Assembly: GCA_030393635.1 (NCBI GenBank)
Contig: GCA_030393635.1_4352.1
Length of the DNA stretch: 44,340 nt
Direction: 5' to 3' (one strand)
Source of the DNA: a phage
Part shown: in pieces, positions 292-44,340 of the stretch
Position numbering within the stretch: position 1 is the first letter of the stretch
Layout of the letters: every line of letters begins with the position of its first letter
The notes under the pieces: model-generated
Told to the model about the DNA's origin: nothing
Databases searched by the model: none
What the model saw: the letters and a program-made list of their open reading frames with translations, nothing else
Translations under genes and position numbers: made by a program

Positions 292-462
292 ATGACGCAG
301 AATGAAGTGGCTGAGCGTATCGGGGTTACTCGTCGCACGCTGAATAACTGGTTAAAGAGTGGGAAGTTCCCTGATTGCTGTATTCGCATTATGGGCCGCC
401 GTCAGCCGGGTACGTTCGACCCGGAGAAAGTGGAAGCGTGGATTAAGGAGAATGTGAAATGA
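292..462 (+). CDS. Small HTH DNA-binding protein (MerR/AlpA/excisionase-like fold)
   Basis: ORF 259..462 with ATG at 292 preceded by GAGGG; the EVAERIGVTRRTLNNWLKSGKFP segment reads as a helix-turn-helix. Confidence 0.6.
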   Translation: MTQNEVAERIGVTRRTLNNWLKSGKFPDCCIRIMGRRQPGTFDPEKVEAWIKENVK

Positions 463-2999: not shown

Positions 3000-3022
3000 G
3001 AAAGGGGCGTTAAGCCCCTTCA
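3000..3022. terminator. Hairpin between convergent genes
   Basis: GGGGC-gttaa-GCCCC stem-loop with A-run upstream and TT downstream. Confidence 0.5.
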
Positions 3023-3225
3023 CCAAACGCCAGCCACTTGGCGTCTACTTGCAGCACTTCTGCCAGTCTAAACAGCGTCGCAGGGCGGACGTCCTGAGTT
3101 ACTCCGAGCGCAAGCTGGTTAATTGCGCCCTGGGAAACGCCGGCCAGAACAGCCAGACGGCGCTGGGAGATTCCGAGTTCTTTACGGCGTTGTTCTACAC
3201 GGATGCCTAGTTCAGATGGTTGCAT
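3010..3225 (-). CDS. XRE-family (Cro/CI-type) HTH transcriptional regulator
   Basis: 71-aa ORF; ISQRRLAVLAGVSQGAINQL is a typical XRE HTH; AAGGAG RBS 7 nt upstream of the ATG on the minus strand. Confidence 0.8.
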   Translation of the reverse strand: MQPSELGIRVEQRRKELGISQRRLAVLAGVSQGAINQLALGVTQDVRPATLFRLAEVLQVDAKWLAFGEGA

Positions 3226-3256
3226 GTCAATTACTCCTTAGTTAGTTTATATGTGA

Positions 3257-3318
3257 ATAGTACCATATTAATTATTTTAGAAAAGCCCATTGACATCATG
3301 AATAGTTCGCTATTATAG
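3257..3318. promoter_or_regulatory. Divergent promoter/operator region between the XRE regulator and the small ORF at 3352
   Basis: Minus strand: TACTAT -10 overlapping palindrome AATAG-TACC-ATATT (3256-3269). Plus strand: TTGACA (3290-3295), palindrome AATAG-TTCG-CTATT (3301-3314), -10-like TATAGT. Confidence 0.55.
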
Positions 3319-3351
3319 TGAGCCTATACTAAACGAGAGGAGAGAAGCAAA

Positions 3352-3501
3352 ATGACCAATAACCGCAAAGCAAAGATTCTGTTAGGCCTTGATGTCGCAT
3401 TTGGAACTAAAGAAACCGCGCGCTATCGCGTAAGCAACAATCGTGTTGGCTTCTTCGACAAAGTGACAGGCCAGTTAGTTAAAACCGTTAAATATAAATA
3501 A
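3352..3501 (+). CDS. Small hypothetical protein (49 aa)
   Basis: ATG at 3352 preceded by strong SD GAGAGGAGAG; not in the ORF track because it is under 60 aa. Confidence 0.5.
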   Translation: MTNNRKAKILLGLDVAFGTKETARYRVSNNRVGFFDKVTGQLVKTVKYK

Positions 3502-3516: not shown

Positions 3517-4008
3517 ATGTTAGAGAAATTCTTAGTATTAATTGAGCGTGGTGTAGTTGCACTTGAACTGATTGCCGCGAACAGTGTGAAACAACCGGTG
3601 TATGAACTTAAGGCAGAGGCAAAAGTAGCCGATAAGGTTCGTGATGTTGTTGTAAAAGAAGCAACAAAAGAAGTCCCGGTCGAAGGTGAAGACATCGTTG
3701 ACACTAAACCGGCAGAAGAAGAAGAGAAGCCAAAACGCAAGCCGCGTAAAGCTAAAGTAGAGGAGCCAACGCCAGAGCCGGAGGAAGAGAAAGAAGAGGT
3801 CGATTACCAGTCTCTTCGTGACCAGATTCAGGCTATCGACGATGCGATTAACGAAGGTCCGAGCGATGCCGCGTGCGATGATTCCGATGAACTGCTGGAA
3901 GAGTTCACCGGTAAGAAAATGAAGATTGCCGCGATTAAAGACGAAGACCTGGCTGAATATCTGGAACGCCTGACTGCAATCAAGAACAAGTATTTCGAAG
4001 AAGAATGA
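3517..4008 (+). CDS. Acidic K/E-rich hypothetical protein
   Basis: 163-aa ORF with RBS AACAGGAGAA; long acidic/lysine-rich low-complexity segment. Confidence 0.6.
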   Translation: MLEKFLVLIERGVVALELIAANSVKQPVYELKAEAKVADKVRDVVVKEATKEVPVEGEDIVDTKPAEEEEKPKRKPRKAKVEEPTPEPEEEKEEVDYQSLRDQIQAIDDAINEGPSDAACDDSDELLEEFTGKKMKIAAIKDEDLAEYLERLTAIKNKYFEEE

Positions 4009-4323: not shown

Positions 4324-4469
4324 CAAGGTACGCGATAATCGTAGAAATAGACGGTAAAGACCAGGAGCATAGTCGCTACGCCCGTTTGGATGAAGCTAGG
4401 TATGTCTTCTATACATTCGGATTCGAACGCAGTTTCAATAATGCGCGTATTGTGGAGATTACGAAATGA
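4320..4469 (+). CDS. Small hypothetical protein
   Basis: In-frame ATG at 4320 with GGGAGAACAGGG upstream; overlaps the upstream stop and is coupled to the next gene. Confidence 0.45.
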   Translation: MTRYAIIVEIDGKDQEHSRYARLDEARYVFYTFGFERSFNNARIVEITK

Positions 4470-5707
4470 TTTTAAAAGAACGCGGTGGCAATAACGATGT
4501 TCACGCCCTACTGTCACCGTCAGGCGCTAAAAAGTGGCTAAGCTGCGCCGCATCACTGGCCTGTGAAAAAGATATTCCTAACACGTCCGGCAAAGCTGCC
4601 GTATTAGGCACAGCTATGCACACCATAGCTGAGATGCACCTTAACCAGTACATCAAAGGTACTGCGTTGCCGTTAGAGCGTGAAGTCGGCGCTTACGTGC
4701 TGGATGAGGGCAAGGGCCAGATTAAGGCGCTAATCAGCCCAATTAAAGACGCGGTACTCATTACGGCGGACATGATTGAGCAGGTGCGCAAGTACACCGA
4801 CTACTGCAAAGCGATTATAGACGTGGCGACTTACGCCAAGCTGGAGATGCGCGTCAATCTTACTGAGGTATTGCATCCGGGGTATGAAGGCGTTGAGACG
4901 TTCGGAACCGCTGACCTTGTTGCCGTTCAGGAACTGGCAAACACCGACGGGCACATGCTCATTATTGGCGACCTGAAAACTGGACGGCATCGTGTCGAAG
5001 CGAAAGAAAACAAGCAGCTTATGCTTTATGCTCTCGGTGTTTATCGCCGACTCAAGAGACGCTATAACATAACAGTTGTTCGTCTGGTTATATTCCAGCC
5101 GTATGCTGGCGGTGCGTCGGAGTGGGACATCTCGGTTGAAGGTCTGGAACTGTTCGCTAAGTTCGCACGGAAACGTGCACTGTTAGCCCTTGATGCATAT
5201 TTCCGGGGCAAGAAGAACCTGAAAGCGTCGGACTTCAGGCCGTCGGTCGATGGTTGTCAGTGGTGTCGGTTCTCTGAGCAATGCGCCGTGCGTACAAAAA
5301 CCGTTAACGCGATACTGGCGGAAGAACTGGAGGGCGGCTTTGCACTCGAACTGACGCCTGAGCAACTCGTAGCTGAGTACGAGAAGTTGCCGCTGTTGCG
5401 ACAGCACATCGACAAGGTTGAAAAAGCTATGGCTGCCGCGCTGCATTCCGGTAAGAAAGTGCCTGGGTACAAACTCGTTGAGGGTAAGATGGGCAACCGT
5501 GCGTGGAAAGATTCCGATGCGGTATTCGAGAAGTACGGCGCTATGTTGCAAAAGGTAGTTCTCATGACGCCGACCGAAGCGGTTAAAGTGATACCGGAAG
5601 AAGAACTGAAAAACTTCATTACCCGTAAGCCGAGCGCACCATGTGTCGCAACGGCAGACGACAAACGTCCTGAGTGGAATCAGGTAACAGAGGAGGATTT
5701 AGAATAA
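4466..5707 (+). CDS. PD-(D/E)XK exonuclease, Cas4/RecB-like with putative Fe-S cysteines
   Basis: 413-aa ORF; N-terminal Cys (WLSCAASLAC) plus C-terminal C-x2-C-x5-C (GCQWCRFSEQC) as in Cas4-type nucleases; C-terminal TEEDLE. Confidence 0.65.
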   Translation: MILKERGGNNDVHALLSPSGAKKWLSCAASLACEKDIPNTSGKAAVLGTAMHTIAEMHLNQYIKGTALPLEREVGAYVLDEGKGQIKALISPIKDAVLITADMIEQVRKYTDYCKAIIDVATYAKLEMRVNLTEVLHPGYEGVETFGTADLVAVQELANTDGHMLIIGDLKTGRHRVEAKENKQLMLYALGVYRRLKRRYNITVVRLVIFQPYAGGASEWDISVEGLELFAKFARKRALLALDAYFRGKKNLKASDFRPSVDGCQWCRFSEQCAVRTKTVNAILAEELEGGFALELTPEQLVAEYEKLPLLRQHIDKVEKAMAAALHSGKKVPGYKLVEGKMGNRAWKDSDAVFEKYGAMLQKVVLMTPTEAVKVIPEEELKNFITRKPSAPCVATADDKRPEWNQVTEEDLE

Positions 5708-5711: not shown

Positions 5712-5740
5712 TTGACACCTGAATAGTTAGCTATTATATT
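5712..5740 (+). promoter_or_regulatory. Sigma70-like promoter with embedded palindrome, upstream of the SSB gene
   Basis: TTGACA (5712-5717), 17-bp spacer containing AATAG-TTAG-CTATT (5722-5735), TATATT (5735-5740). Confidence 0.6.
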
Positions 5741-5798: not shown

Positions 5799-6425
5799 AT
5801 GGGACTGAAACTGAATCTGCGTAAAGTAAACACTGCATGGGTTAACGTATTCGAACGCGAAAAAGACCGCGAAAACGATGATGGCTCAATCACTAAAGGC
5901 CAGTACAGCGCAACGATTATCCTGCCGCCGGACCATGCTCAAATCGACGCGCTCTACGACACTGTTTACGCTGTAGTTGAGGGAGCGTTAGGCGCAGCCG
6001 CCGCCGAGAAATGGATGAAGTCCAACTACGGCGAAGGTAAGCACATGGATAAATGCGCGATTAAAGACATTGCCGAGCGCGACAATCCGTTTGAAGACTT
6101 CCCGGAAGGCTTCTACTTCAAAGCGAAAGCACAGAAACAGCCGCTGATTGTAACCTCTAAAAAAGGCGAGGCTCAGGTAGAGCAGGACTTCAATGTAGAC
6201 GGCGAACAGATTGAAGGTGAACAGGTTTACAGCGGCTGTGTTGCCAACGTAAGCGTTGAAATCTGGTTCAGCCAGAAATACAAAGTCCTCGGTGTTAACC
6301 TGCTGGCAATTAAATATGTTGGCGAGGGTAAAGCGTTCGGTGGTTCTAAAGTCGCCGCAAGTGTCGACGACCTCGAAGACGACGAAGATGATGAAGCACC
6401 GCGCCGCGAACGTCGTCGCCGTTAA
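5799..6425 (+). CDS. Single-stranded DNA-binding protein (T7 gp2.5-like)
   Basis: 208-aa ORF with acidic DDLEDDEDDE segment near the C-terminus, resembling the gp2.5 tail, followed by a basic RRERRRR terminus. Confidence 0.55.
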   Translation: MGLKLNLRKVNTAWVNVFEREKDRENDDGSITKGQYSATIILPPDHAQIDALYDTVYAVVEGALGAAAAEKWMKSNYGEGKHMDKCAIKDIAERDNPFEDFPEGFYFKAKAQKQPLIVTSKKGEAQVEQDFNVDGEQIEGEQVYSGCVANVSVEIWFSQKYKVLGVNLLAIKYVGEGKAFGGSKVAASVDDLEDDEDDEAPRRERRRR

Positions 6426-6468: not shown

Positions 6469-6636
6469 CTAAGGGTCGAAAATAATGTTTTTCTGTAAGC
6501 ACGTTTATCGCTATATGAAACCGCTTCCGTGGTACGCGGATAAGTACCGGGCCGGATACCGGCATGTGTGGATTTGCCGTGATTGTATGAAAATAAGATT
6601 AAGCGAAACGAAGGCACTGGATTTAAGGAAAAAGAA

Positions 6637-8838
6637 ATGAGCTACTTATACCTGGACTTTGAAACATTCTCCGAAGCCGATTTAAAGAAAGTCGGTTCCT
6701 ACGCTTACGCCGAACATCCAACTACCGAAGTGCTTATCTGTACCTATGCTTTCGATGACGAGCCTGTGCAGGTATGGGATTGCACCGACGGCAGCGACAT
6801 GCCGGGCGATTTGCACCGCGCGTTACGCCGTCTGGTTAAGCCAAACAGCCGCATCAAGATGGTGTGGCACAACGGCTCAATGTTCGATCGCCTCATCATG
6901 AAGCACTGCTGGGGTTTTGGTATTCCGGTAAGCAACACCATTGATACTATGATTTGGGCGTTTCGTCACGCGCTGCCGGGTTCACTTGATGCGTTATGTG
7001 AAGTGCTGGGTGTATCCGCGGACAATGCAAAAGATAAACGCGGTAAGGCACTGATTCAACGTTTTTCTAAACCGACACCGAAGAACTACAAAATCCGCCG
7101 CTACACCGCCGAAACACACCCGGACGAGTGGGCGCTGTTCATCAAGTACGCCGTGAGCGACATCACTGCTATGCGTGAGGTCTTCCATAAGCTGCCGCGG
7201 TGGGGTAACTCCGAGTTCGAAGACCGTGTACTGGAACTTGACCAGTTAATCAATGACCGTGGGTTTAAGGTTGACGTTGCGCTGGCAGAAGCCGCTATTG
7301 AAGCCGTGGAGAAACACAAAGCGCAGTTACAGGAAGAAGCCCAACGCAAATACGGCGGCTCGCTTACCGGTAAGGACTTTCTGCCGATTCTGCGTGAACT
7401 CGCACCCGCGCACCGCATCCACAACGCGCAGAAGTCAACGCTTAACGACCTGCTGGCAGATGATGACTTACCAGACGACGCCCGCACGATTATCGAAATG
7501 CGCCTCGGGGCTGCGTCAACAGCGTCCACGAAATATAACCCGCTGCTGTTGGGCCGCTCGTCTGACGACCGTCGCCGCGGCTGCTTGCAGTACGGTGGGG
7601 CGAAACGGACTCTGCGATGGGCGGGTAAAGGCTTTCAGCCGCAGAACCTGGCGCGCGGGTACTATCACGATGATGAACTGGATAAAGGCATTTCTGCGCT
7701 ACTTAAAGGTCGTGCTCATCGCCGTTTTGACGTAGCCAAGCTGACGGCATCGACGGTTCGTAGCTGCATTATCCCAGAGGCAGGGCATAAGTTTGTCGTC
7801 GCCGATTACTCTAACGTTGAAGGCCGTGGGCTTGCGTGGCTGTCGGGCGAAGAAACCGCGCTTGATACGTTCCGCGCCGGACTGGATATTTACTGTGTAA
7901 CCGCGGGCAAGATGTTCGGTATGGACCCTGATGACATTAAGAAAAACTTCAAGGAAATCAGACAGATAGGCAAGGCCTGCGAGCTTGGCCTCGGCTATGA
8001 GGGAGGCGTCGGAGCATTCGTTACGTTCGCTAAAAACTTAGGTCTTGACCTTATTGAGATGGCAAAAACAATGGACGGTACTTTTCCTGATCATATATGG
8101 GCGGCTACCGCACGTGGTTATGAATGGGCGCGTATCCAGGAAGCAAAGCGACCCCCGCATCCTGGTGAAAAGGACGACAGACCATCGTATATTCTGGACA
8201 AGAAAGTGTGGCGCACATGCGACGCAATCAAGCGTATGTGGCGTGAGTCTCATCCGGAAACAGTAGCTTTCTGGTGTGACCTTAAAGACGGAATTTTAGC
8301 CGCTGTTCGTAATCCTGGTCGTGAATTTTGGGCAGGGGCACACTTGCGCAGGAATGGGGAAAGGGCTATCCGCATATGGCGCACCGTAGAAAACGATTCA
8401 TCCGGTAGGAAAGTTCCAGGTTGGTGGCTGTGTATGGAGTTGCCGTCAGGCCGTATCCTTTCGTATCCGGGAATCGGAGTTAGCGTGACAAAGGAAACAG
8501 ACGAAGACGGACGGGTAAACACGAATGTGCGAATCAAGTATCAGGGTGAAAACCAGTTAACCCGCCAATGGACTACCCTGTACACACACGGCGGCAAAGC
8601 CTGTGAAAACATTGTTCAGGCGCTGTGCCGTGATTTGCTGGCTAATGCCCTGCTGAACGTAGAAGCAAACGGCTACCCGATTGTGCTTCATGTTCACGAT
8701 GAAATTATCTGCGAGACGCCAGATTTACCGGAATACAATGTCGCAGAGCTTGAGCGATTGATGTGCGAATTACCGGAATGGGCTGAGGGGTTCCCTCTTG
8801 TGGCAGAAGGTGCGGAGATGAAGCGTTATGCCAAGTAA
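6637..8838 (+). CDS. Family-A DNA polymerase with N-terminal 3'-5' exonuclease
   Basis: ORF 6583..8838; ATG at 6637 after AAGGAAAAAG; Exo I-like LDFETFS; typical Pol I length and layout. Confidence 0.85.
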   Translation: MSYLYLDFETFSEADLKKVGSYAYAEHPTTEVLICTYAFDDEPVQVWDCTDGSDMPGDLHRALRRLVKPNSRIKMVWHNGSMFDRLIMKHCWGFGIPVSNTIDTMIWAFRHALPGSLDALCEVLGVSADNAKDKRGKALIQRFSKPTPKNYKIRRYTAETHPDEWALFIKYAVSDITAMREVFHKLPRWGNSEFEDRVLELDQLINDRGFKVDVALAEAAIEAVEKHKAQLQEEAQRKYGGSLTGKDFLPILRELAPAHRIHNAQKSTLNDLLADDDLPDDARTIIEMRLGAASTASTKYNPLLLGRSSDDRRRGCLQYGGAKRTLRWAGKGFQPQNLARGYYHDDELDKGISALLKGRAHRRFDVAKLTASTVRSCIIPEAGHKFVVADYSNVEGRGLAWLSGEETALDTFRAGLDIYCVTAGKMFGMDPDDIKKNFKEIRQIGKACELGLGYEGGVGAFVTFAKNLGLDLIEMAKTMDGTFPDHIWAATARGYEWARIQEAKRPPHPGEKDDRPSYILDKKVWRTCDAIKRMWRESHPETVAFWCDLKDGILAAVRNPGREFWAGAHLRRNGERAIRIWRTVENDSSGRKVPGWWLCMELPSGRILSYPGIGVSVTKETDEDGRVNTNVRIKYQGENQLTRQWTTLYTHGGKACENIVQALCRDLLANALLNVEANGYPIVLHVHDEIICETPDLPEYNVAELERLMCELPEWAEGFPLVAEGAEMKRYAK

Positions 8839-9041: not shown

Positions 9042-9194
9042 ATGACAATGTTTGTATTCTGGACAATCGTAACCCTGCTCGCACTGTTACTCGGTGCGGG
9101 AGTAGCCGCGGTGTTCTGTTACGACCTGTTCTTTAAGTTTGTCGGTGTTGCCGTTCTAAGCGGAGCTTTCCTTACTTGGGTTCTACGCTCATGA
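9042..9194 (+). CDS. Small membrane protein (50 aa)
   Basis: Hydrophobic MTMFVFWTIVTLLALLLGAGVAAV; stop overlaps the next start as ATGA. Confidence 0.4.
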   Translation: MTMFVFWTIVTLLALLLGAGVAAVFCYDLFFKFVGVAVLSGAFLTWVLRS

Positions 9195-9475
9195 CTAAAG
9201 AGGGCCGCATACAGAAATACGCAAAAGACCGATTCGAGGCCATCGGCGGCCTCGTTCGTAAGTTATCGTACGAGGGGCGCTCCGGCGCTCCCGACCTGCT
9301 GGTAATTCTCCCCGGCAGCATAGTCTGGTTCGTCGAGGTTAAGAAAGACGAAAACACGAAGCCAGACCCGCACCAGCTACGGGAACATGAGCGGATGCGC
9401 AAACGTGGCGCGAATGTTTTTGTCGTCGGTTCGTTTAAACAGGTTGACGACCTAATAGCGAACTATTATAGTTAG
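9191..9475 (+). CDS. VRR-NUC domain nuclease (PD-(D/E)XK)
   Basis: ORF 9176..9475 with ATG at 9191; GAPDLLVI...VEVKK matches the VRR-NUC catalytic core. Confidence 0.65.
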   Translation: MTKEGRIQKYAKDRFEAIGGLVRKLSYEGRSGAPDLLVILPGSIVWFVEVKKDENTKPDPHQLREHERMRKRGANVFVVGSFKQVDDLIANYYS

Positions 9476-9505: not shown

Positions 9506-9697
9506 ATGAAACACGAATATGACCGAAAACCAGCACGTGACATCGTACCGGGCGACATGATTTTCAACGTTAAGACACGCCAGCCTGTTGCCGTTGATAC
9601 GGTGTTCGTCGAGTCGAACGGTAAACTGGTTATCGAAGATGTAACGGGTAACGTTACCGCGTTTGGACGTAAAGAGTTAGTTCTGGTGGCTAAATGA
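9506..9697 (+). CDS. Hypothetical protein
   Basis: 63-aa ORF with AAGGAATTGAG RBS. Confidence 0.5.
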   Translation: MKHEYDRKPARDIVPGDMIFNVKTRQPVAVDTVFVESNGKLVIEDVTGNVTAFGRKELVLVAK

Positions 9698-14521: not shown

Positions 14522-17077
14522 TTAATTAAAACCATTGCTGAATCCGTCGGAGAAACCGCGGCCGAAAGGCGCGACGCCGTCGTATTTATAGAATCCGTCG
14601 TCATAGTTGTAGCCTGTAATCTTGACCGTGCGGTCGTCGCCCGGGTCGATTGAAGAAACAACTATCTTCTGAGCATTATGCCTTGCTTCGTTGCCGAATG
14701 AAAACTCAGTTTTTAGTGCGCTATTCCCCGTATAGATTGCCTCCTCCGGCGCGGAGAGCATAATCACTTCGCGGTCGTGGCTTCCTTTGATAACAGAGAT
14801 GCTTTGCACTGAGCCATCGCGCTTCTTGAGGATGATGGAGTGGTCATCGCCGGGGGTAAACGTAACGGGCTGCGACAACGTCAGTGTAAGGCCATTAACG
14901 GCAACAACATAGCCGTCCTGTGGCGCGATGCGTGAACCTTTAACTACGCTGATTACCCCACCGGGCGTAGCCAGCGCACCCTCTTCCGTAGCTTCGAACT
15001 CTACGACAACTTTACTTAACGCGTTGCGCTGATAGCGACGCCACGCCAGCCAGTACGCTTGCTGGTAGTTGCGCACGCCCTTCGATTCATATTCCTCTGT
15101 ATTTACCCCGAGTTCTTCCGGGATATAAATCGTTTCCTGTACGTTAGTATCCGGGTCGATGTATGAGAACGACAGGCTATCGTAGGTAGTAGAATCGTTG
15201 AACGTGCGCGTCCATTTCTCTGTACCGGTAGTTTTGCTGCGGTGGGTGAACACCATCTCAGGCCCCGCAACTGGACGGTCGAAGCGCAACATAATATCCG
15301 CGCCTTTACGGTACGCTGTGCAGAACACGGCTTCCGCTATAGTCTGAACGATGTCCTGCATCGTGGTGTCGTAGTCGTCGAACGTGTAGCAGAACTGCCC
15401 CGCCAATTCACTTCCGAAATAGGACTCAATTTCTTCCTGCACGGATAGTAACTTATCCATGTTTGCCGTTGTGAGTTCCAGATTACCAACCGCCGGGTCA
15501 CGCGCCAGTCGGATTAGAGATTGCACGGCCTGCGTATTCGGCGTCATTACGGTATCGAATACCCCATTGCCGAGGTATTTGTAGCACATCTCGGTTGCAA
15601 TCATGCGCAGTTCCGGGTTGTCGATACTGGCGGCACGCGGCGTCTGTTTACGGGCACAATGTACGGTAGTTCGGTTGCCGTAGTGCGGGGTTGTGTCCAG
15701 AGACTGACCGTACAGGTTGATGAAGGTTATCTCGTCGCTTACCGTACCGTCGTAGTCTTTATCAAAATTCGTTATACGACGCATACGGGCGCGGAAACGC
15801 GATGCAGTAGGCAGTTGACCGTAGATAGACGTGCCGACGTAGTCCGTGTTGTTGCCTGTAATTGTGGCCTGTACCGTGTAAATATCGCTCAACGGGTTAC
15901 GCTGAGAGTCAATCATCTGGTACTGGAGTTCTACGGTTACGCTGGTGCGGTTATATCCGCCGTCGTATTTGTAGAGGCCGTTCTGCCCCGCGATGTTAGC
16001 GAGCACACGGTCAACCTCTCCGCGAACCATGTAATACCAGTCCGTAAGAGATACGTCATAGGTGTTGCTTGGGCCAATGAATGTATCAGAACGCTCTGTA
16101 AGTGCGTAAGTCTCTCCGCTATTAAGGTTGCCCCAGTTACCTATATCCCCGACGTACAACCTAACCTCAAAGTCGTCAACGTATAAAACCTCAAACGAGC
16201 CGTTCAGGTTAGTGACGTCAGCAACATCGAAGTTGCTAAGCACCGCGACATCACCGACGCTAAGAAACTCAGAAAAAGCAGAGTCGCCCGACGGGTCGTA
16301 GATGTAGCCTGTGGTTGAAATACGTTTAGCTGTGCCGCCGGCGCTTGGGTTAGCCCCAATGTCGTTTGGCGCCTTCAGTACAATACCATCAACGTCGTCG
16401 TTGGAGTATGTCACATAGAGTTTCTGGTCAATGACGTCGCCGATTTGTAGTTGAGGCGATGCGGTGTTGTTCGGGGAAGTATACGGCGCATACACGGCAA
16501 CAGAGGAGCCTGTGATGTCGCTTATCAGGGTGTCGCCTTCTGTGACGCCATCCGCCTCAATATGCAGATGTCCGCGCCCTGCGTCGTAGTACGAATACTC
16601 CAGCAACGCACCAGTGGAGTTGAACGCCTTGTACGTCTGCATCAGGTCATTAGGGATTGTCTGCACAGTTCCGCAAATATCGTAGGAACGCTCGTAAGGA
16701 CGCGGCTTGTTGGAGCGGTCTGTGAGGCTGTTATTCGGCGATGTTGTCTGGTTGTTAGTCGCCGTGTAGTTGGCGTTGGCGGCCGTGTTCAGACCAAACA
16801 ACTTGGCAATTGGCTTAAGGATAAAACCGAACACCTTACTAACAGCACCAAGCGCCCCGCTACCGGCGCCCTCAATAATGTGGTACACGGCGTCTTCGTC
16901 TTTAAGCGCATCGAAGTCGTCAGTTACGTCGGTATCATCACCAATCTCACCGAGGTAGACTCGCACAGGCACGCCGTCGGGAATACGGTTAACGACAAAC
17001 TCCATCGGCATCCCGACGTGTTTTGTACGGTCGAAAGCGCCGTCGGCGTTTCGCGTGTAGTGCAGGATTATCGCCAA
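14522..17077 (-). CDS. Tail tip / central fibre protein (lambda gpJ-like)
   Basis: 851-aa ORF at the end of the L/M/K-like minor tail gene series. Confidence 0.6.
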   Translation of the reverse strand: MAIILHYTRNADGAFDRTKHVGMPMEFVVNRIPDGVPVRVYLGEIGDDTDVTDDFDALKDEDAVYHIIEGAGSGALGAVSKVFGFILKPIAKLFGLNTAANANYTATNNQTTSPNNSLTDRSNKPRPYERSYDICGTVQTIPNDLMQTYKAFNSTGALLEYSYYDAGRGHLHIEADGVTEGDTLISDITGSSVAVYAPYTSPNNTASPQLQIGDVIDQKLYVTYSNDDVDGIVLKAPNDIGANPSAGGTAKRISTTGYIYDPSGDSAFSEFLSVGDVAVLSNFDVADVTNLNGSFEVLYVDDFEVRLYVGDIGNWGNLNSGETYALTERSDTFIGPSNTYDVSLTDWYYMVRGEVDRVLANIAGQNGLYKYDGGYNRTSVTVELQYQMIDSQRNPLSDIYTVQATITGNNTDYVGTSIYGQLPTASRFRARMRRITNFDKDYDGTVSDEITFINLYGQSLDTTPHYGNRTTVHCARKQTPRAASIDNPELRMIATEMCYKYLGNGVFDTVMTPNTQAVQSLIRLARDPAVGNLELTTANMDKLLSVQEEIESYFGSELAGQFCYTFDDYDTTMQDIVQTIAEAVFCTAYRKGADIMLRFDRPVAGPEMVFTHRSKTTGTEKWTRTFNDSTTYDSLSFSYIDPDTNVQETIYIPEELGVNTEEYESKGVRNYQQAYWLAWRRYQRNALSKVVVEFEATEEGALATPGGVISVVKGSRIAPQDGYVVAVNGLTLTLSQPVTFTPGDDHSIILKKRDGSVQSISVIKGSHDREVIMLSAPEEAIYTGNSALKTEFSFGNEARHNAQKIVVSSIDPGDDRTVKITGYNYDDGFYKYDGVAPFGRGFSDGFSNGFN

Positions 17078-21596: not shown

Positions 21597-21626
21597 TTGC
21601 GCGCCCCAATATAATAGGGTACTATT
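21597..21626 (+). promoter_or_regulatory. Promoter with embedded palindromic operator, upstream of the Imm-like gene
   Basis: TTGCGC, 17-bp spacer, TACTAT; palindrome AATAG-GGTA-CTATT (21613-21626). Confidence 0.6.
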
Positions 21627-21655: not shown

Positions 21656-21847
21656 ATGTCAAGTTTACCGGTTTCCCTAATTCTATTTGCGCTGCTCGCT
21701 TATTTCGCACCTTTCCTGGTTGCGTATTTCCGCAACCATAAAGCGAAGTTGGCGATATTCATGGCCAATCTGTTTCTTGGTTGGATTCTGCTGCCGTGGG
21801 TCTTTATTTTAATCTGGGCATGCAACTCGAATGTTAACGAGAAGTGA
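21656..21847 (+). CDS. Superinfection-immunity-like small membrane protein
   Basis: 63-aa ORF with two transmembrane segments and NLFLGWILLPW, reminiscent of Imm-type proteins. Confidence 0.5.
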   Translation: MSSLPVSLILFALLAYFAPFLVAYFRNHKAKLAIFMANLFLGWILLPWVFILIWACNSNVNEK

Positions 21848-21885: not shown

Positions 21886-23016
21886 ATGGCCCGGAAGAAA
21901 ATAACCGACGAACAATTACAGGAAGAATTGAACGCCGGAGTTAAAACTATCGATATAGCCCGTAAATATGGCATCTCAGACCGCGTTATTCGTATCCGTA
22001 AAGCGAAGCTGGCTAAGAAAGGCGTAGGCCACGGGCGCGACGTTAGCCACCTTGTCCCGGACGGCTACAAGATTAAAGGAACGTCGTCACTTGTAGACGA
22101 GTTCGGCAACACTAAGTTGCAATGGGTTAAGACCGATACTGACGCCGAACGTCAGGTCGAGTTAATGAAAGCCGTAATTGAGGGCATGAAGTCAGAGATT
22201 ACGCCCGTTGCTCCTGTTAAAGCCACCCGTTCCAAACGCGACGATAAACTACTCAATCTTTACACCGTGTCTGACTTTCATCTCGGTATGCTGGCCTGGG
22301 CCGACGAGAGCGGCGACGACTGGGATATGAAAATCGCGGAGGGCCTGTTCTCCCGATGGTTCGACGAGGCGTTTCAGAAAGCGCCGGACGCTGGGACCGG
22401 AGTTATTAACCTGCTAGGCGACTTCGCGCACTTCGATAGTCTGGTTGCCGTTACACCTGCAAGCGGTCACGCTCTTGACGCCGACACCCGTTATCAGAAA
22501 CTTGTCCGCTACATGATTCGTATGGTCCGCCGTGTTGTCGATATGGCGCTGGTTAAGCATAAAACTGTTCGCTTGCTTATTGTGCAAGGGAACCACGACG
22601 AAAGCGGAATGATTTGGTTAGCTGAGATGTTCAGTACGCTGTACGACAATGAGCCTCGTGTGTTCGTCGATACGTCGCCGGATGTTTACAAGATGGTGCA
22701 ACACGGCAAAACGACGCTGTTCTTTCATCACGGCCATAAGGCGCGATTCGACGCTATCGAACCGGTTATGATTGCCAAGTTCCGCAAAGCGTTCGGCGAG
22801 AGTGTTTACAGCTACGCCCACGTAGGCCACCTGCACCACCAGAAGGTTGTAGAAAGCCGTAACATGATTGTTGAGCAACACCGCACCTTAGCGGCCAAAG
22901 ACGCCTACGCCTCCCGTGGCGGATGGATGTCGGGCCGTAGTGCAAATGTAATTACTTATAGCGCCGAATACGGCGAGGTCGCGCGTTTAACTATTTCACC
23001 GGAGATGCTGGGATGA
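21886..23016 (+). CDS. Calcineurin-like metallophosphoesterase with N-terminal HTH
   Basis: 376-aa ORF; metal-binding GNHDE, FHHGHKA and HVGHLHH motifs; N-terminal IDIARKYGISDRVIRIRK HTH-like segment. Confidence 0.65.
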   Translation: MARKKITDEQLQEELNAGVKTIDIARKYGISDRVIRIRKAKLAKKGVGHGRDVSHLVPDGYKIKGTSSLVDEFGNTKLQWVKTDTDAERQVELMKAVIEGMKSEITPVAPVKATRSKRDDKLLNLYTVSDFHLGMLAWADESGDDWDMKIAEGLFSRWFDEAFQKAPDAGTGVINLLGDFAHFDSLVAVTPASGHALDADTRYQKLVRYMIRMVRRVVDMALVKHKTVRLLIVQGNHDESGMIWLAEMFSTLYDNEPRVFVDTSPDVYKMVQHGKTTLFFHHGHKARFDAIEPVMIAKFRKAFGESVYSYAHVGHLHHQKVVESRNMIVEQHRTLAAKDAYASRGGWMSGRSANVITYSAEYGEVARLTISPEMLG

Positions 23017-30944: not shown

Positions 30945-31194
30945 GTTTCTCCTTTCTCGATAAGTAAAGCCCCGCCATAAAGCGGGGCGCTAGTCCTTAT
31001 CATTTAAACATAGAAACGGCGTAATCTCAGTAAACCAGTTACTTTTTACACAAGCAATAGAGTACGGCCCTTCCGAACGCGTCAGCGTAACTACACTCAG
31101 GACTTACGTCCAGCTCCGTTACCTGCCCGCGCCGCGGTCGCTTGTTCATACTTCACAAGCTCAGGTGGAGCTTAGCACATTTTTAGTGAAAAGT

Positions 31195-31210
31195 CAACTA
31201 TTCGAATAGT
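31195..31210. promoter_or_regulatory. Perfect 16-bp palindrome AACTATTCGAATAGTT
   Basis: Read directly; contains the CTATT/AATAG half-sites in everted order, about 55 bp upstream of the -35 of the promoter at 31264. Confidence 0.5.
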
Positions 31211-31297
31211 TTATTCCAACATTTACAATTGAGTGGAATAACCGGAATAGGTGAATAAATAGTTTGCGCACCCCAACATAATAGGGTACTATTCACT
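31209..31297 (+). repeat. Copy A of an ~89-bp direct repeat carrying a promoter/operator
   Basis: Near-identical to 31599..31687; TTATTCCA...TGGAATAA inverted repeat, TTGCGC-17-TACTAT promoter, palindrome AATAG-GGTA-CTATT (31280-31293). Confidence 0.7.
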
Positions 31298-31321: not shown

Positions 31322-31573
31322 ATGATTACGAAACCAGCAAAACATCGTGTACGGGACCTTGGTTCTTTTCTTAAAAAAGAGTATGAACAGGCCGAATTAC
31401 GCGGCGACATTTCGGCGTATATTGAGCTTCAGCAGATGCAACTGGACGCGCAAGAAGACGGGGATATGTCTCTATCCGCCGCGGTCGGCAGAAGTATGCG
31501 CCAGATTCGTGAAAAGTATGACCGAAACGTCTGGAATAGAGAGATTAACTTAACCCAAGAGACAGGGTATTAA
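31322..31573 (+). CDS. Hypothetical protein (83 aa)
   Basis: ORF with GAGGCGAGAAG RBS, flanked by its own promoter copy and terminator. Confidence 0.55.
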   Translation: MITKPAKHRVRDLGSFLKKEYEQAELRGDISAYIELQQMQLDAQEDGDMSLSAAVGRSMRQIREKYDRNVWNREINLTQETGY

Positions 31574-31604: not shown

Positions 31605-31687
31605 TCCAACATTTACAATTCGGTGGAATAACTGGAATACTTAAATAAATAGTTTGCAAACACCAATATAATAGGGCACTATTCACT
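31599..31687 (+). repeat. Copy B of the ~89-bp direct repeat carrying a promoter/operator
   Basis: TTGCAA-17-CACTAT promoter with palindrome AATAG-GGCA-CTATT (31670-31683), upstream of the PAPS-reductase-like gene. Confidence 0.7.
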
Positions 31688-31709
31688 TAACTTGAACAGG
31701 AGGCATTAT

Positions 31710-32522
31710 ATGAAACATGTAATCAGTTTTTCAGGCGGCAGAACATCAGCGTACACAACCCTTGAAGTGCTTAAACTCTACCCCGATGCTGAGGTCATCT
31801 ATATGGATACTGGGGCGGAGCACCCCAAGACATACGAGTTCATCCGCAATTTTGCTAAGCACTTTAATATTGCGGTGACGTGCCTGCGGGTGGTCCCTAA
31901 CCCAGAAATGCGTAAGGCCAGTACCTATGAAGTCCTTAGTGTAGATGAAATAGGTCCTGACCTGGAGCCGTGGCGCAGAATGCTGCGTAAGTATGGGCAC
32001 CCATACGTCGGCGGCGCTTTCTGCACAGACCGGATGAAGACGGTGCCGTTCACCAAATACTGCGACGAGAAATACGGCAAAGGAAAATACGACAGATGGC
32101 TGGGGGTCCGCTGTGACGAACCTAAGCGCCTGGTAAACAGGAAAGATGGGTTCCACTATCTTGCAGACATAAGTGATTTTGAGAAACAGGACATAATCGA
32201 GTGGTGGGCGAAACAGGAATTTGACCTTGGTATAGAAGAACACTTAGGTAACTGTGTTTTTTGTATCAAAAAGAGCCTGCAAAAAGTAGCACTGGCGGCT
32301 AAGGATGAACCTCAGTTAGCCGAACAATTTTGGGGAATGATTCAGGAAGAAGACATAAAGCGGGATAAGGTTATGTATAGGTCGAACAGAACCCTCGGCG
32401 AGGTCATCGCACTGTTTCGGGATGAGCGCCGTGAGGAGCTTGCATCTCGTATACGCTCAATGCGGCAGTACGACACGGGGTCATGCAGTGAAAGCTGTGA
32501 AGCGTTTTCCGTTTCTGAATAA
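31710..32522 (+). CDS. PAPS reductase-like (PP-loop ATP-pyrophosphatase family) protein
   Basis: ORF 31692..32522 with ATG at 31710 after AGGAGG; N-terminal SFSGGRTS PP-loop motif; C-terminal cysteines CVFC and CSESC. Confidence 0.65.
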   Translation: MKHVISFSGGRTSAYTTLEVLKLYPDAEVIYMDTGAEHPKTYEFIRNFAKHFNIAVTCLRVVPNPEMRKASTYEVLSVDEIGPDLEPWRRMLRKYGHPYVGGAFCTDRMKTVPFTKYCDEKYGKGKYDRWLGVRCDEPKRLVNRKDGFHYLADISDFEKQDIIEWWAKQEFDLGIEEHLGNCVFCIKKSLQKVALAAKDEPQLAEQFWGMIQEEDIKRDKVMYRSNRTLGEVIALFRDERREELASRIRSMRQYDTGSCSESCEAFSVSE

Positions 32523-33012: not shown

Positions 33013-34088
33013 TATTCCCCTTTCAGATAATCAGCAACACGTTTATCGAGTTCCGCCATCTGCTTAAGCGTGAGCGGATTCCCGAAACCATCTACAGATA
33101 TTACGCGAAACTCTTCCGGCGATATACCGCTGTTGCGGAAAATCTTACCGCGAACAGGGCCTAGTGCTTCATCCTGAAACCATGCCGGTTGTTGTTTCAG
33201 GAACTCGTAATAGGTGGTGTCCGCACTTACCTGAGTACCGCCTTCGGCGCCCTTAGCCGCTCGTTTCGCTCCTTTATCGAGGAAGTCGAACTCCGAACTT
33301 ATTACAGGTGCCGTGCACGACCGACAGTTCGGATGGGCCGGAGGCATCGGCCCTTTACCAATTTCCCACGTCATTCCGTCTCTGGCTCTGCAAATCGTAC
33401 TGGTACGGCTGTCCAGCGTTGACACCCATTCGTACTTCTCGATGATGTCGTCGTTCTGACGGTACGTTTCGTTACGTGCTTCGTTGGATACGTGGGACAG
33501 CGCGGTGCGGATTACCGTAGCGGCGTTGCGTTCCGAGATGTCAGCCAGCCCGCCAGCGCCTACGACATTCTTAACAATCTGCCGTGTGGTTTGGCCTTGT
33601 ACAAAGCCCATCTTAACGCCGGTTACCAGGCGCGATACTTCTGTTTCGCCCCAGCCTGACATCAGCTTGGTGAAATCGACAGGCTTGTCGCCCAACGATA
33701 AGGGTTGAAACTCGGCAGCGGCCCACACCTGCTCTGCGGTAGGCGTAACAAATTCCACGTCAACGTTGGCGGTCAGCGTTTTTACGTTCCACTCTGCCTC
33801 ATACGCCGCCAGCTCCTTGAGGTCTTCTGTCAGCTTTGTTTGCCAGTCGCCTGTAAGCCCGGTTAATGCTTCTTCAATGTCGCGTAACAGTTTATTCAGG
33901 CGCGCTGTGCTGCGACCGTCGTCACCGAACAGCAAAACCTGCCATTTGATTTCGTCCCGCATTTCCTGAAGAAACGGCGCAAGGTCTTTCACTTCACCGG
34001 ATGCGGTGCGTTGCAGCCATATCTGGTGGCTGATTAGGGATGTAAGTAAGCTCATAGATAAACCCTGTGGTGCTAAAGTTAATAGCAT
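33012..34088 (-). CDS. Head morphogenesis / minor head protein
   Basis: 358-aa ORF immediately downstream of the portal gene. Confidence 0.55.
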   Translation of the reverse strand: MLLTLAPQGLSMSLLTSLISHQIWLQRTASGEVKDLAPFLQEMRDEIKWQVLLFGDDGRSTARLNKLLRDIEEALTGLTGDWQTKLTEDLKELAAYEAEWNVKTLTANVDVEFVTPTAEQVWAAAEFQPLSLGDKPVDFTKLMSGWGETEVSRLVTGVKMGFVQGQTTRQIVKNVVGAGGLADISERNAATVIRTALSHVSNEARNETYRQNDDIIEKYEWVSTLDSRTSTICRARDGMTWEIGKGPMPPAHPNCRSCTAPVISSEFDFLDKGAKRAAKGAEGGTQVSADTTYYEFLKQQPAWFQDEALGPVRGKIFRNSGISPEEFRVISVDGFGNPLTLKQMAELDKRVADYLKGE

Positions 34089-34124
34089 ACTATAAGAAAG
34101 CCCCTTTCGGGGCTATATGCGAAC

Positions 34125-35618: not shown

Positions 35619-36869
35619 TTAAAGTGCGAAAGTCACCGGGATGTTGATTACGGGTTTAACCACCGGCATCTCGTAAACTACAGGATAACCGAGAGCATCG
35701 GCCATATGGTCAATGATGCCGTCTTTAGCTGGCTCTCCGTTATCGTCATATGCCTGCTGCTCCAGCGTCTTCGCTATCTCAGGGCATAAGTGGTCGTTAA
35801 CCCACAGCTTACCTTTTTCCAGTGCGGTATTCACCGCTAAAACGCGGTCTTTAACCGGAGGGTTGGCAGATTTAGCGCGAACATCGAACCCGGCCTGCTG
35901 GAGTAACGCAATATCAGAGATTGATGCCGAGTTTGTCTTGCGGTTCTTGCCGCTGGCGTCGGGGTAAACGACGATACGGTGGCCTTGCGACTTCCACTTC
36001 TCGGTAATTACGCGCACGGTGTCAGGCGTATCGAACAGTCCTTTCAGTTCTGCTACCGCGTGCCACCCGTTAGGGCGTTGCACATATACGGCGCTGGCGT
36101 TTTTCGTAACGTTGAAGTCCTGCCCGATGTACAGAGTGTCGCCCGGTTCGATTGTCTCTTTGCTGCGGTGCTTACGGCGGTCGTATGCGTAATACACGCT
36201 GCCGGAGGTCAGGTTGACAAACTCACCGTTGAGATACGCGTTAATCAACTGCGCCGGATATGTCTCGGTCAGTGAGCTAATGTAATCTGGTGGCAGGAAC
36301 CGCGCATTCTCATGAGTTGATGCCTGCACCATAGAGTAACTTGGCGTCGGGTTCTCTTTGAACTTGGCATAGACGAACTTGAACCCTTCCGGCGTCGTGG
36401 TGACGGAGATGTGGTTAGTTACACCCGGGATAACAAGACGCATACGGGCAACAATTTTGTTCCATGCCAGTTCAGCTTTCTCGCGACTCAATACGTCCAA
36501 CTCATCGACGACCGCAGCCGCGATTTTGAAGCCGACGATAGAGCCGGGGTTATCCATTGAACGGCAGATAACCGTACCGAGCACCGTCTTGCCTCGCGTA
36601 ACAACGACCTCTTTGTCGCCGGATTTAACAAGCACATCAAGGCCGAGCAGGTTAGCCGCTTCCTCGAATGTCGGGTAGAAGATGTCGCGGATGGCCGGGT
36701 ATGTAGGGCCGAAGTAGCCCAGGCGAGTACCTGGGTGCTTGAGCATAAACGTAAGCAGGTCAAGGCAGCCAACAAATGTCTTGCCGCTGCCGAAACCGCC
36801 GACGTAGGCTTTGTATTTGTTATCGCAATTCAGGAACAGCGCCTGCGGGGCGGATAGCTGAATACTCAT
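35619..36869 (-). CDS. Terminase large subunit
   Basis: 416-aa ORF; Walker A VGGFGSGKT near the N-terminus; nuclease-type acidic residues in the C-terminal half. Confidence 0.85.
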   Translation of the reverse strand: MSIQLSAPQALFLNCDNKYKAYVGGFGSGKTFVGCLDLLTFMLKHPGTRLGYFGPTYPAIRDIFYPTFEEAANLLGLDVLVKSGDKEVVVTRGKTVLGTVICRSMDNPGSIVGFKIAAAVVDELDVLSREKAELAWNKIVARMRLVIPGVTNHISVTTTPEGFKFVYAKFKENPTPSYSMVQASTHENARFLPPDYISSLTETYPAQLINAYLNGEFVNLTSGSVYYAYDRRKHRSKETIEPGDTLYIGQDFNVTKNASAVYVQRPNGWHAVAELKGLFDTPDTVRVITEKWKSQGHRIVVYPDASGKNRKTNSASISDIALLQQAGFDVRAKSANPPVKDRVLAVNTALEKGKLWVNDHLCPEIAKTLEQQAYDDNGEPAKDGIIDHMADALGYPVVYEMPVVKPVINIPVTFAL

Positions 36870-39481: not shown

Positions 39482-39510
39482 CGATGAAGTAAATATAATA
39501 GGGTCGAGGG
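39482..39510 (-). promoter_or_regulatory. Sigma70-like promoter (minus strand)
   Basis: TTGACT, 17-bp spacer, TATATT read on the minus strand. Confidence 0.5.
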
Positions 39511-39650
39511 TAATAGTCAACTAGTCATTGCAGAAAATAGATAAAAAAAAAATCCCGGCTGGGTCAGGGCTGGGATAAAACTGGAGAGTAGAGGGATGGA
39601 ACAGGAGGTGATTTAAGTATCGTCGGATTAGTCTTAGGTGTCAATTGGTA

Positions 39651-41785: not shown

Positions 41786-41973
41786 TGCTTCGCCTCCACA
41801 CCGCATTTACGGCAATACGGAACACCAGGTCTATTGCCAAAAACCGTCTTACATCTCCACTCATGCTCACACTCATTACCCATTCTCTTGCGAAGTTTGG
41901 CGTAAGCCGCATCGAATCCTTCCGTACGGGCATTGTGCTGGAAGGCGCACCGTGTGCAAAAACAGTCTGCCAT
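41782..41973 (-). CDS. Small zinc-ribbon protein
   Basis: ORF 41782..41985 with ATG at 41973; ECEHEW...CRKCG module. Confidence 0.45.
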   Translation of the reverse strand: MADCFCTRCAFQHNARTEGFDAAYAKLRKRMGNECEHEWRCKTVFGNRPGVPYCRKCGVEAKQ

Positions 41974-42656
41974 TATGCTAACCACCGTAAATCATAAGGT
42001 AACGTTTCGCTCCGCGCACCGCAAACGTCACATTCATAAAAGCCAGGCCCGTCACCCATGACGTAACTCCACTCATGCTCACATTCCTGAGTATCGTTTT
42101 TCGGTTTATATTCCTTGTCGTCCCACTCACGTTTACCACATTTAGAGCAAAGCTCACTACCAGGAACGTTGTTCGGATTGCCTTCGCTGAGAAACAACCC
42201 AGGCATAATAATCCAAGAGTGCTCGCATTCCTGAACGTCTTCCTTACGGCAACCGGATTGCTCGGGTCCGTGTTCGCCTACTACGTAGCTCTTCCCTTTA
42301 GGCAGTGGGCCGCCGTGGTTGGTTACACGGTCGAAGTCCTCATTCATTAGTTTTATTGTTTCCTGCAACTCAGCCACCAGCGCCGACGCATCCCGTAACT
42401 GATTCTTAAGTGACAGCACCTCATGGGCCAGGTCTTCGCACTGGTTGTTATTTACCTGTTGCCGTAGGGTGTCTTTCAGCACACGTATTTCGTCGTCCCT
42501 ACCAGCGATATGCTGCTGTAGGTTGTGGATTACCTGCTTGACCTCATCAAGGTCGGATATCTGTACAGACACATTGAAAGATGTGACATCTTTCTTATTT
42601 ACCTGCTGCCGTAGTTGGTCAATCAGGTACTCGAATACTTCGTTTTTGTTACTCAT
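41973..42656 (-). CDS. Coiled-coil protein with two tandem zinc-ribbon modules
   Basis: 227-aa ORF; repeated LRQQVN segments; two ECEHxW...CxxCG modules. Confidence 0.55.
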   Translation of the reverse strand: MSNKNEVFEYLIDQLRQQVNKKDVTSFNVSVQISDLDEVKQVIHNLQQHIAGRDDEIRVLKDTLRQQVNNNQCEDLAHEVLSLKNQLRDASALVAELQETIKLMNEDFDRVTNHGGPLPKGKSYVVGEHGPEQSGCRKEDVQECEHSWIIMPGLFLSEGNPNNVPGSELCSKCGKREWDDKEYKPKNDTQECEHEWSYVMGDGPGFYECDVCGARSETLPYDLRWLA

Positions 42657-42687
42657 CTTCTGTCTCTCCTCTCGTTCATGTAAATGA

Positions 42688-42716
42688 ATAGTAGCCTATT
42701 CTATCTTAGTGTGCAA
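42688..42716 (-). promoter_or_regulatory. Promoter with embedded palindromic operator (minus strand)
   Basis: Minus strand: TTGCAC, 17-bp spacer, TACTAT; palindrome AATAG-TAGC-CTATT at 42687-42700. Confidence 0.6.
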
Positions 42717-43694: not shown

Positions 43695-43853
43695 TTAGTG
43701 TTCAACTTCCACCCCGTCTTTCGTTACATGGAAATAAATCTTAGGTAAATGCTTGTACTTGCTAATCCACATCTCTGCGCCAGCTAAAGTAGAAAACTCT
43801 TTAGCTAATATCGTCCGCGTCGATTCTTTTGATTTAATCTCAACTCTAAACAT
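43695..43853 (-). CDS. Small hypothetical protein (52 aa)
   Basis: Start overlaps the upstream stop (TGATG). Confidence 0.3.
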   Translation of the reverse strand: MFRVEIKSKESTRTILAKEFSTLAGAEMWISKYKHLPKIYFHVTKDGVEVEH

Positions 43854-44053
43854 CACTTCGCCCCTTTGAATTTAAAATTGTTGCCGATGAGTTTTAAATT
43901 CTCTTCCGCTACGTATACCACCGAATTTACTCCTCTCACCTTTTGCACAGTAACTACGTACTCTCCCGGAAATAAAGCAGATTTTAATTCAATCACACCG
44001 TGTTTACCGTCGGCGCATTTAACCAACTGACCCTTCTTAAACATAACCCTCAC
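43853..44053 (-). CDS. Hypothetical protein, first gene of a minus-strand operon
   Basis: 66-aa ORF with GGAGTGAGGG RBS, directly downstream of the promoter at 44079..44107. Confidence 0.5.
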   Translation of the reverse strand: MRVMFKKGQLVKCADGKHGVIELKSALFPGEYVVTVQKVRGVNSVVYVAEENLKLIGNNFKFKGAK

Positions 44054-44078
44054 TCCTCTGTCTCGTCTCGATAAGTGA

Positions 44079-44107
44079 ATAGTACCCTATTATGTTGGGG
44101 CGTGCAA
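44079..44107 (-). promoter_or_regulatory. Promoter with embedded palindromic operator (minus strand)
   Basis: Minus strand: TTGCAC, 17-bp spacer, TACTAT; palindrome AATAG-TACC-CTATT at 44078-44091. Confidence 0.6.
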
Positions 44108-44249: not shown

Positions 44250-44340
44250 ATCAGATACTTAAGATATATGCCGCCGATGAGCATAGAGCTTGCCCAGGGC
44301 AACTGGAGATACTTAGGAAGGAAAGTTACGATAATTCTCG
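44250..44340. repeat. Second copy of the 91-bp end repeat
   Basis: Matches 1..91; implies a unit genome of about 44,249 bp. Confidence 0.9.

Follow-up and report, generated by a model that had tools for sequence, protein, structure and literature searches.

A recurring AATAG-N4-CTATT dyad at promoters of a Kagunavirus genome: a probable operator set for a Cro-like protein

The Cro protein of phage 434 binds as a dimer to 14-bp dyads of the form ACAA-N6-TTGT. In other phages, one small repressor acts at many dispersed sites, such as the operators of P1 C1, the stoperators of Cluster A mycobacteriophages and the inverted repeats of phiC31. The Guernseyvirinae (Kagunavirus, Jerseyvirus) are among the most often isolated phages of E. 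coli and Salmonella and have been put forward as therapy and biocontrol agents; there has been hardly any study of their transcription programme. In Kagunavirus fBC-Eco01, seven sites detected by PHIRE, with the consensus tgAATAGTa-ccTATTat-T, are designated ‘phage RNA-polymerase promoters’ in the section that describes them (PMC9825357). Likewise, the corresponding section on Jerseyvirus SGP-C presents the PHIRE element TAATAGTACCCTATTATGTT as a ‘phage-specific regulatory element’, and part of that paper speculates, from phenotype, on immune and possibly episomal lysogens (PMC8790156). As given in those sections, both elements are the same sequence element as the dyad analysed here, in close relatives; the descriptions themselves mention neither dyad symmetry, nor several registers, nor a link to a Cro-like protein. 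Literature searches returned neither a reading of the motif as an operator nor experiments on the regulator. RNA-seq data on phage K1B4 give no start sites, on a coarse time scale and with gene naming that is ambiguous for two HTH genes. Collectively, the motif is already known, and its reading as an operator is new but conventional in kind.

The DNA analysed, a stretch of 44,340 bp hereafter called the window, covers nearly the whole genome of a Kagunavirus (Guernseyvirinae), a K1G/K1ind-like E. coli siphovirus. Phages ULINTec2, NTEC3 and Bas73 are ∼90% identical to its first 12 kb. Bases 1-90 are identical to bases 44251-44340, a match due to a terminal repeat or else to overlapping ends of a circular assembly. 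In annotated relatives, the structural, lysis and small-gene operons share one strand and the replication operons occupy the opposite one, with a few short islands in counter orientation. The large ORFs of the window correspond to helicase-primase, DNA polymerase A, tape measure, tail protein and tailspike. Genes for RNA polymerase, integrase or partition are not annotated in Bas73, SETP13 and Schulenburg.

A sequence-only reading of this DNA had noticed a recurring AATAG-N4-CTATT palindrome and suggested searching for it with a shuffled-sequence null. The palindrome is real. In this search, AATAGNNNNCTATT (AATAG-N4-CTATT) has eight exact matches in the window, at 3301, 5722, 9454, 21613, 31280, 31670, 42687 and 44078, against a mean of 0.02 in dinucleotide shuffles, none of which reaches eight; with at most one mismatch, 13 dyads are found for 0.98 expected. 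The coordinates listed in that reading are correct, including the single mismatch of the dyad at 3256, but the list had overlooked the exact site at 9454. When every arm of 4-6 bp is scanned with gaps of 0-12, AATAG-N4-CTATT is the most enriched non-terminator dyad in the window, the remaining enriched dyads being only G+C-rich terminator stems, and it likewise tops the scan in Bas73 and Schulenburg. In Jerseyvirus SETP13, the top dyad with 6-bp arms is TAATAG-N4-CTATTA, with six copies for 0.01 expected. Eight exact and four conserved one-mismatch dyads are thus dispersed over the 44-kb window at unrelated operons. The one-mismatch sites at 31189, 39512 and, less clearly, 34081 apparently occupy the same positions in related genomes, and that at 15418, within a tail gene, looks like a chance occurrence. 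The arm centres are 9 bp apart. The extended Kagunavirus motif, TGAATAG-N4-CTATTAT, has asymmetric flanks (TGAATAG ... CTATTAT), and its orientations are opposite in the promoter classes A and B defined below. Sites 9454 and 3301, found in the same promoter type, are exact reverse complements of each other.

Three classes of sites are defined by the position of the dyad within a sigma-70-type promoter. The promoter-like context stated in the sequence-only reading holds for the hexamers, which are 17-18 nt apart, for the location 25-45 nt 5′ of an RBS and ATG (except for the long-leader promoter at 31169) and for conservation. It finds no echo in generic sigma-70 scans of the whole window, where hits are no commoner than in shuffles; as such scans alone do not establish it, the promoter context rests on the hexamers, the placement 5′ of RBS and start codon, and conservation. 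The match to consensus covers 10-11 of 12 positions in class A promoters and 10 of 12 in the class C promoter at 39492-39520.

In class A (3301, 5722 and 9454), TTGAC(A/G) is followed after 4-5 nt by the dyad, which lies in the spacer at about -25 to -12 and whose last T starts the -10 hexamer TATAGT or TATATT. These promoters, all on the plus strand, belong to three replication and recombination operons. The promoter at 3290..3319 (TTGACA-18-TATAGT), with the exact dyad 3301-3314 in its spacer, is predicted to serve 3352..3501, 3517..4008 and the genes on through the exonuclease at 4466..5707. That at 5712..5740 (TTGACA-17-TATATT; exact dyad 5722-5735) would serve the gp2.5-like SSB (5799..6425) and the DNA polymerase (6583..8838). 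For both, the earlier description of TTGACA with a dyad inside the spacer is confirmed. The third, at 9444..9472 (TTGACG-17-TATAGT; exact dyad 9454-9467), is predicted to serve 9506..9697, a methyltransferase and a helicase. It falls within the 3′ end of ORF 9176..9475, the counterpart of a Bas73 gene annotated as Holliday junction resolvase; its dyad overlaps the final codons of this ORF, so this site does not share the intergenic position claimed for the others.

In class B (21613, 31280, 31670, 42687 and 44078), the promoters read TTGC(G/A)(C/A)-17-(T/C)ACTAT, as rechecking of the five previously described sites confirms; the dyad begins 10 nt past the -35 hexamer and its right arm lies within the -10. 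They are associated with small early genes, a superinfection-immunity gene and a PAPS-reductase-like accessory gene. On the plus strand, the promoter at 21597..21626 (TTGCGC-17-TACTAT; dyad 21613-21626 over the -10) is predicted to serve the superinfection-immunity gene 21656..21847 and the exonuclease 21886..23016, that at 31264..31293 (TTGCGC-17-TACTAT; dyad 31280-31293) the gene 31322..31573, and that at 31654..31683 (TTGCAA-17-CACTAT; dyad 31670-31683) the PAPS-reductase-like accessory gene, ORF 31692..32522. On the minus strand, the promoter at 42687..42716 (TTGCAC-17-TACTAT; dyad 42687-42700) would serve 41973..42656 and downstream genes, and that at 44078..44107 (TTGCAC-17-TACTAT; dyad 44078-44091) the gene 43853..44053 and downstream small early genes. 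Readings of class B promoters on the opposite strand, or with an embedded TATAAT as alternative -10, were rejected for want of a usable -35. A class B variant is found at the own promoter of the XRE gene (3256..3269, minus strand), where the one-mismatch dyad AATATGGTACTATT (minus strand) covers the -10 and no recognisable -35 is seen. Here, the mismatch (AATAT/GG) generates the extended -10 TGg-TACTAT at 3257-3265. This site is present in all Kagunavirus genomes examined, and its Jerseyvirus equivalent is ATTACTGTACTATT.

Several features of these regions extend beyond the dyad. The promoters at 31264 and 31654 are duplicated cassettes, and the segments 31230-31293 and 31620-31683 have ∼45 bp of upstream sequence in common (ggaataacYggaata...aataaatagtttgc). 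The PAPS-reductase-like gene 31692..32522 is not annotated at the corresponding position of Bas73, and the region resembles a moron-type insertion combined with duplication of the promoter cassette. CCCCAAYAT just 5′ and CACTTA just 3′ of class B dyads recur at separate loci in both genera, the CCCCAAYAT spacers of the window being located at 21603-21612, 31270-31279, 31660-31669 and 44092-44101, with the promoter at 42687 as an exception. This conservation is explained neither by a symmetric operator nor by sigma-70 hexamers. Leaders of the AACGAGAGGAG type with an RBS are repeated 5′ of the first genes of several dyad-controlled operons (e.g. 3333-3343, 42660-42672 and 44055-44070). In SETP13, the dyad 14869-14882, placed between the genes for superinfection immunity and the tail chaperone, is common to two apparent back-to-back promoters, TTGACG-17-TATTAA and TTGCAT-17-TATTAT.

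In class C (39512 and 31189), the -35 hexamer of TTGACT-17-TATATT or TTGACT-17-TAAGCT forms the centre of a one-mismatch dyad. The promoter at 39492..39525 (minus strand; TTGACT-17-TATATT), with its -35 within the dyad ACTAGTTGACTATT at 39512-39525, comes after a T run and faces small genes and then the terminase. Its site occurs in all Kagunavirus and Jerseyvirus genomes examined, with the Jerseyvirus mismatch falling in the opposite arm. The promoter at 31169..31202 (minus strand; TTGACT-17-TAAGCT), with its -35 within the dyad AATAGTTGACTTTT at 31189-31202, faces the spanin, scaffold and capsid genes via a leader of ∼200 nt. This untranslated leader (30945-31197, minus strand) ends in a strong intrinsic terminator, 30969-30988, which stands just 5′ of the spanin, scaffold and capsid genes; by analogy with the lambda PR′-6S RNA-tR′ arrangement, which it resembles, the layout hints at antitermination control of late genes. 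A further one-mismatch dyad, TATAGTATGCTATT (minus strand), lies at 34081..34094, directly past a terminator and between the portal and head-morphogenesis genes. The sites had been assigned to early and accessory genes; these are included, but replication operons and, in weaker form, promoters facing the terminase and the spanin and capsid genes have to be added.

The position of the dyad relative to the hexamers differs between classes: it starts 4-5 nt past the -35 in class A and 10 nt past it in class B, and it encloses the -35 in class C. At the SETP13 site 14869, a -35-like hexamer lies 7 nt off the dyad on both strands. This varying register argues against an element read by RNA polymerase, which would hold one register. 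A second line of evidence comes from ten genomes (Kagunavirus, intermediate and Jerseyvirus) in which the three class A loci were compared column by column. Variation touches a single one of the 30 arm columns but 10 of the 12 in the centre (Fisher p = 5e-7), and in the upstream columns (-35, linker and one flanking base) 20 of 33 vary, mostly in the linker. Since every genome covering a class A locus has the site, ascertainment bias is small. Sigma-70 makes few base-specific contacts in the spacer, at about -25 to -12. With arms near-invariant and a centre free to vary in class A, a promoter consensus alone is insufficient, and the dyad is supported as an element under selection in its own right, apart from the -35 and -10 hexamers. 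An extended promoter consensus, offered in the sequence-only reading as the alternative to an operator, accounts in part for the TTGCNC class and fails on the register shifts and the class A spacer arms. Class B also keeps CCCCAAYAT and CACTTA, and part of its similarity is thus due to promoter consensus or cassette duplication. In IMG/VR, the class A composite TTGAC-N5-AATAG-N4-CTATTATA is found in 68 stretches, on contigs of ∼5-45 kb and mostly 41-45 kb, and most of these stretches have homologues of the replication proteins of the window. One of them (L041), which shares 0 of 10 Guernseyvirinae query proteins, is probably a chance match. On these comparisons, the class A composite appears specific to this phage group, a third indication of more than a promoter consensus.

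The candidate dyad-binding repressor is the product of the XRE/Cro-like gene at 3010..3225 (minus strand), a protein of 71 aa. It contains a Pfam HTH_3 domain (46.5 bits for a cut-off of 23; E 3.7e-12), and its best PDB sequence match in phmmer is phage 434 Cro (E 6.3e-7). Its AlphaFold model has five helices (pLDDT 84), with 2cro, 1pra and 3cro as top Foldseek matches in the PDB (TM about 0.72-0.79; 2cro first), and the protein is predicted to adopt the five-helix lambda-repressor-like fold. In several relatives it is annotated as Cro, repressor or transcriptional regulator. The layout of the gene is autoregulatory, its start at 3225 being preceded by two putative operators, the dyads 3256-3269 and 3301-3314, one of which covers the XRE -10. 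These dyads do not flank the gene, as had been stated; both sit upstream of it, in a divergent region of 127 bp. The proposal of a dimeric binder gains partial support from the separability of the selected dyad from the hexamers and from the neighbouring XRE protein, a 434 Cro homologue in a family of dimers that bind 14-bp dyads; indirectly, the dyad geometry and the klb_E control described below also fit it.

Comparison of regulators and sites across phages bears on this candidate in both directions. In the positive control, an unrelated Klebsiella phage (klb_E) that shares with the window only the XRE homologue, this homologue has the 434-type helix KQQTIQ, and two ACAA-N6-TTGT dyads occur directly 5′ of its gene (L003 34284-34324), with a third at 35673. 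In genomes encoding the Jerseyvirus XRE helix SQSLITH, the base flanking the arm is T in 36/36 half-sites; with the Kagunavirus helix SQGAINQ, it is T in 47, G in 39, A in 3 and C in 3, a difference that favours XRE on the basis of very few independent evolutionary events. The XRE proteins of Kagunavirus and Jerseyvirus are 51% identical, and their recognition helices differ at four of six positions. Despite this divergence, the AATAG core is unchanged, which counts against XRE as the binder. An indexed search of a large protein database with XRE as query recovered relatives of at least 75% identity only and no new lineages. In Klebsiella phage 37P2 (Guernseyvirinae), the XRE homologue is present and no repeated dyad was detected.

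An operator dyad recognized by another binder, either a host factor or the HTH_17 protein (excisionase/Cox-like; 292..462, plus strand; Pfam HTH_17, E 3.3e-7; PHROG 66), is an unlikely alternative with some attractive features. The HTH_17 gene is the first of the helicase-primase operon, and the 89% identity of its product between Kagunavirus and Jerseyvirus parallels the invariant AATAG core. In the phage collection, it is found solely in Kagunavirus- and Jerseyvirus-type phages, mostly of Escherichia and Salmonella, the group that has the strong motif, and Cornellvirus Shemara and Serratia phage Otaku, both with a weak or altered canonical dyad, lack it. Moreover, in the time course of the Kagunavirus K1B4, an HTH gene is among only four ‘early’ genes, in a text that is ambiguous between the two HTH genes. 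Against this reading, the usual targets of HTH_17, Xis and Cox-type proteins, bound by monomers or filaments, are direct repeats and not 14-bp dyads; a solved relative of HTH_17 was not found, and no dyad lies upstream of its own gene. The phage collection does not separate the two candidates, XRE and HTH_17 both occurring in the same Kagunavirus- and Jerseyvirus-type phages; the outgroups alone do so. Shemara and Otaku, both without HTH_17, have XRE-type regulators with other helices and retain variant dyads at promoter sites: ATTAG-N4-GTAWT at five sites in Shemara (∼0.1 expected by chance) and ARTAG-N4-CKATT at four in Otaku (0.1 expected), an enrichment that is overstated as the patterns were picked after inspection. 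These variants lie in intergenic stretches or sigma-70-like promoter sequences, including one 5′ of the SSB gene in both phages. The comparison, based on very few independent evolutionary events, favours a dyad that tracks XRE-bearing lineages and not HTH_17. In Shemara (L009 5331-5552) and Otaku (L010 29108-29341), the XRE-type gene is the first of the helicase-primase operon; in Kagunavirus and Jerseyvirus, HTH_17 holds that position, with XRE encoded on the opposite strand, downstream of the operon. As for host factors, an AATAG-N4-CTATT consensus is not known for any E. coli or Salmonella regulator, and to our knowledge the spacing of the dyad does not fit a Fur-box, OxyR or ARG-box likeness.

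It is equally improbable that no trans factor acts at all and that the dyad is a shared strong-promoter sequence, spread by cassette duplication, with incidental symmetry, a view to which the PHIRE-based papers in effect amount. The ∼45 bp that class B promoters have in common, including CCCCAAYAT and CACTTA beyond the dyad, speak for it, as do the clear duplication of the 31264 and 31654 promoters with their common upstream sequence, the coincidence of the class B right arm with the -10 hexamer TACTAT, and the lack of symmetry in the Kagunavirus flanks; the published consensus tgAATAGTa-ccTATTat-T, in the section describing it, was detected solely as a repeated sequence. However, the dyad sequence stays constant while its position relative to the -35 and -10 moves by 5-15 bp and its orientation flips between classes, or even within one promoter type, as with 9454 and 3301. 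In class A, both spacer arms are near-invariant and the adjacent spacer bases variable, and because the N4 centre diverges freely, recent duplication does not explain the invariance of the arms. The flank position, in addition, undergoes symmetric, lineage-specific changes. An activator or dual regulator that represses classes A and B and activates the late-facing class C, in the manner of phi29 p4, is very unlikely. It would fit the different placement of the class C dyads over the -35, their imperfection in every genome examined and the weak class B -35 hexamers (TTGCNC), but the dyad overlaps core promoter elements in all three classes, activator sites are usually centred at about -41.5 or -61.5, and class A and C promoters, already at 10-11 of 12 consensus positions, should not need activation. 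Practically negligible, finally, is the probability that an RNA polymerase encoded by the phage uses the sites as its promoters, the reading given for fBC-Eco01, where, in the section concerned, seven sites with this consensus were so labelled from PHIRE output. The annotations of Bas73, SETP13 and Schulenburg list no such polymerase gene, other functions account for the large ORFs of the window, and the dyad sites bear good sigma-70 hexamers. Hairpin promoters of the N4 type were likewise rejected, the stem being weak and no virion RNA polymerase being encoded.

The likeliest reading, held with moderate confidence, is that (T/G)AATAG-N4-CTATT(A/C) is the operator of a Cro-type dimeric repressor, present as a genome-wide set, with the XRE protein (3010..3225) as its most probable binder. 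It is tempting to propose the following circuit. On injection, host sigma-70 RNA polymerase would initiate at the dyad promoters, and XRE would be produced from its own extended -10 promoter. As they accumulate, XRE dimers would fill the dyads, over the -10 in class B, in the spacer up to the -10 in class A and over the -35 in class C. Since the dyads overlap core promoter elements, bound XRE is proposed to shut out RNA polymerase. The perfect dyads, at early, accessory and replication promoters, may be silenced first, and the imperfect ones, at the XRE promoter (autoregulation) and at promoters facing the terminase and the spanin and capsid genes, occupied last or least. Such a circuit would correspond to the lytic-phase role of lambda or 434 Cro, extended to the whole genome and operating without a CI partner. 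Repressor sites over promoters that face structural genes are nevertheless unexpected in a phage regarded as strictly lytic, and this counts against the proposed reading. A bolder extension, in which XRE and its dyads, present on nearly all promoters, silence the whole genome and let nominally virulent therapy-candidate phages survive in a repressed carrier state, non-integrated and with superinfection immunity, appears quite doubtful; the SGP-C paper claims such a state from phenotype.

If one Cro-like protein does act at ∼12 promoters through a dyad of 14-16 bp, the temporal programme of a whole subfamily becomes testable with one protein and one site, and the published annotation as ‘phage RNA polymerase promoter’ would be corrected. 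This would also bear on a possible repressed carrier state of Guernseyvirinae and provide a compact orthogonal set of repressor, operator and promoters for engineering. The concept itself is a variation on the well-known Cro-operator theme.

Among known systems, phage 434 offers the closest counterpart. XRE and 434 Cro both have 71 aa, and 434 Cro is the best match in sequence and in fold. In both cases, the operator (putative in the window) is a 14-bp dyad with a variable centre between arms of 4-5 bp, its copies extend over the -10 or -35 of sigma-70 promoters, and the gene adjoins its own sites in a divergent control region. The half-sites differ, with AATAG and a 4-bp centre here and ACAA and a 6-bp centre in 434, and so do the recognition helices (SQGAINQ in XRE and KQQSIQ in 434 Cro). 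Unlike 434, the window has no CI partner and no tripartite OR, and integrase is not annotated in its relatives; among the small proteins scanned, the sole other HTH protein is HTH_17, which does not make a lambdoid CI/Cro bistable switch. Furthermore, ∼12 sites are spread over the whole genome, whereas in 434 they form two clusters (OR and OL). In this dispersal over unrelated operons, including replication and accessory genes, the window resembles the P1 C1, stoperator and phiC31 systems, although P1, the Cluster A mycobacteriophages and phiC31 are temperate and the phage group of the window is regarded as virulent. Asymmetry marks both P1 operators and stoperators, the latter also being orientation-biased and located inside transcription units; the dyads of the window, in contrast, have a symmetric core, occur in both orientations and are embedded in promoters.
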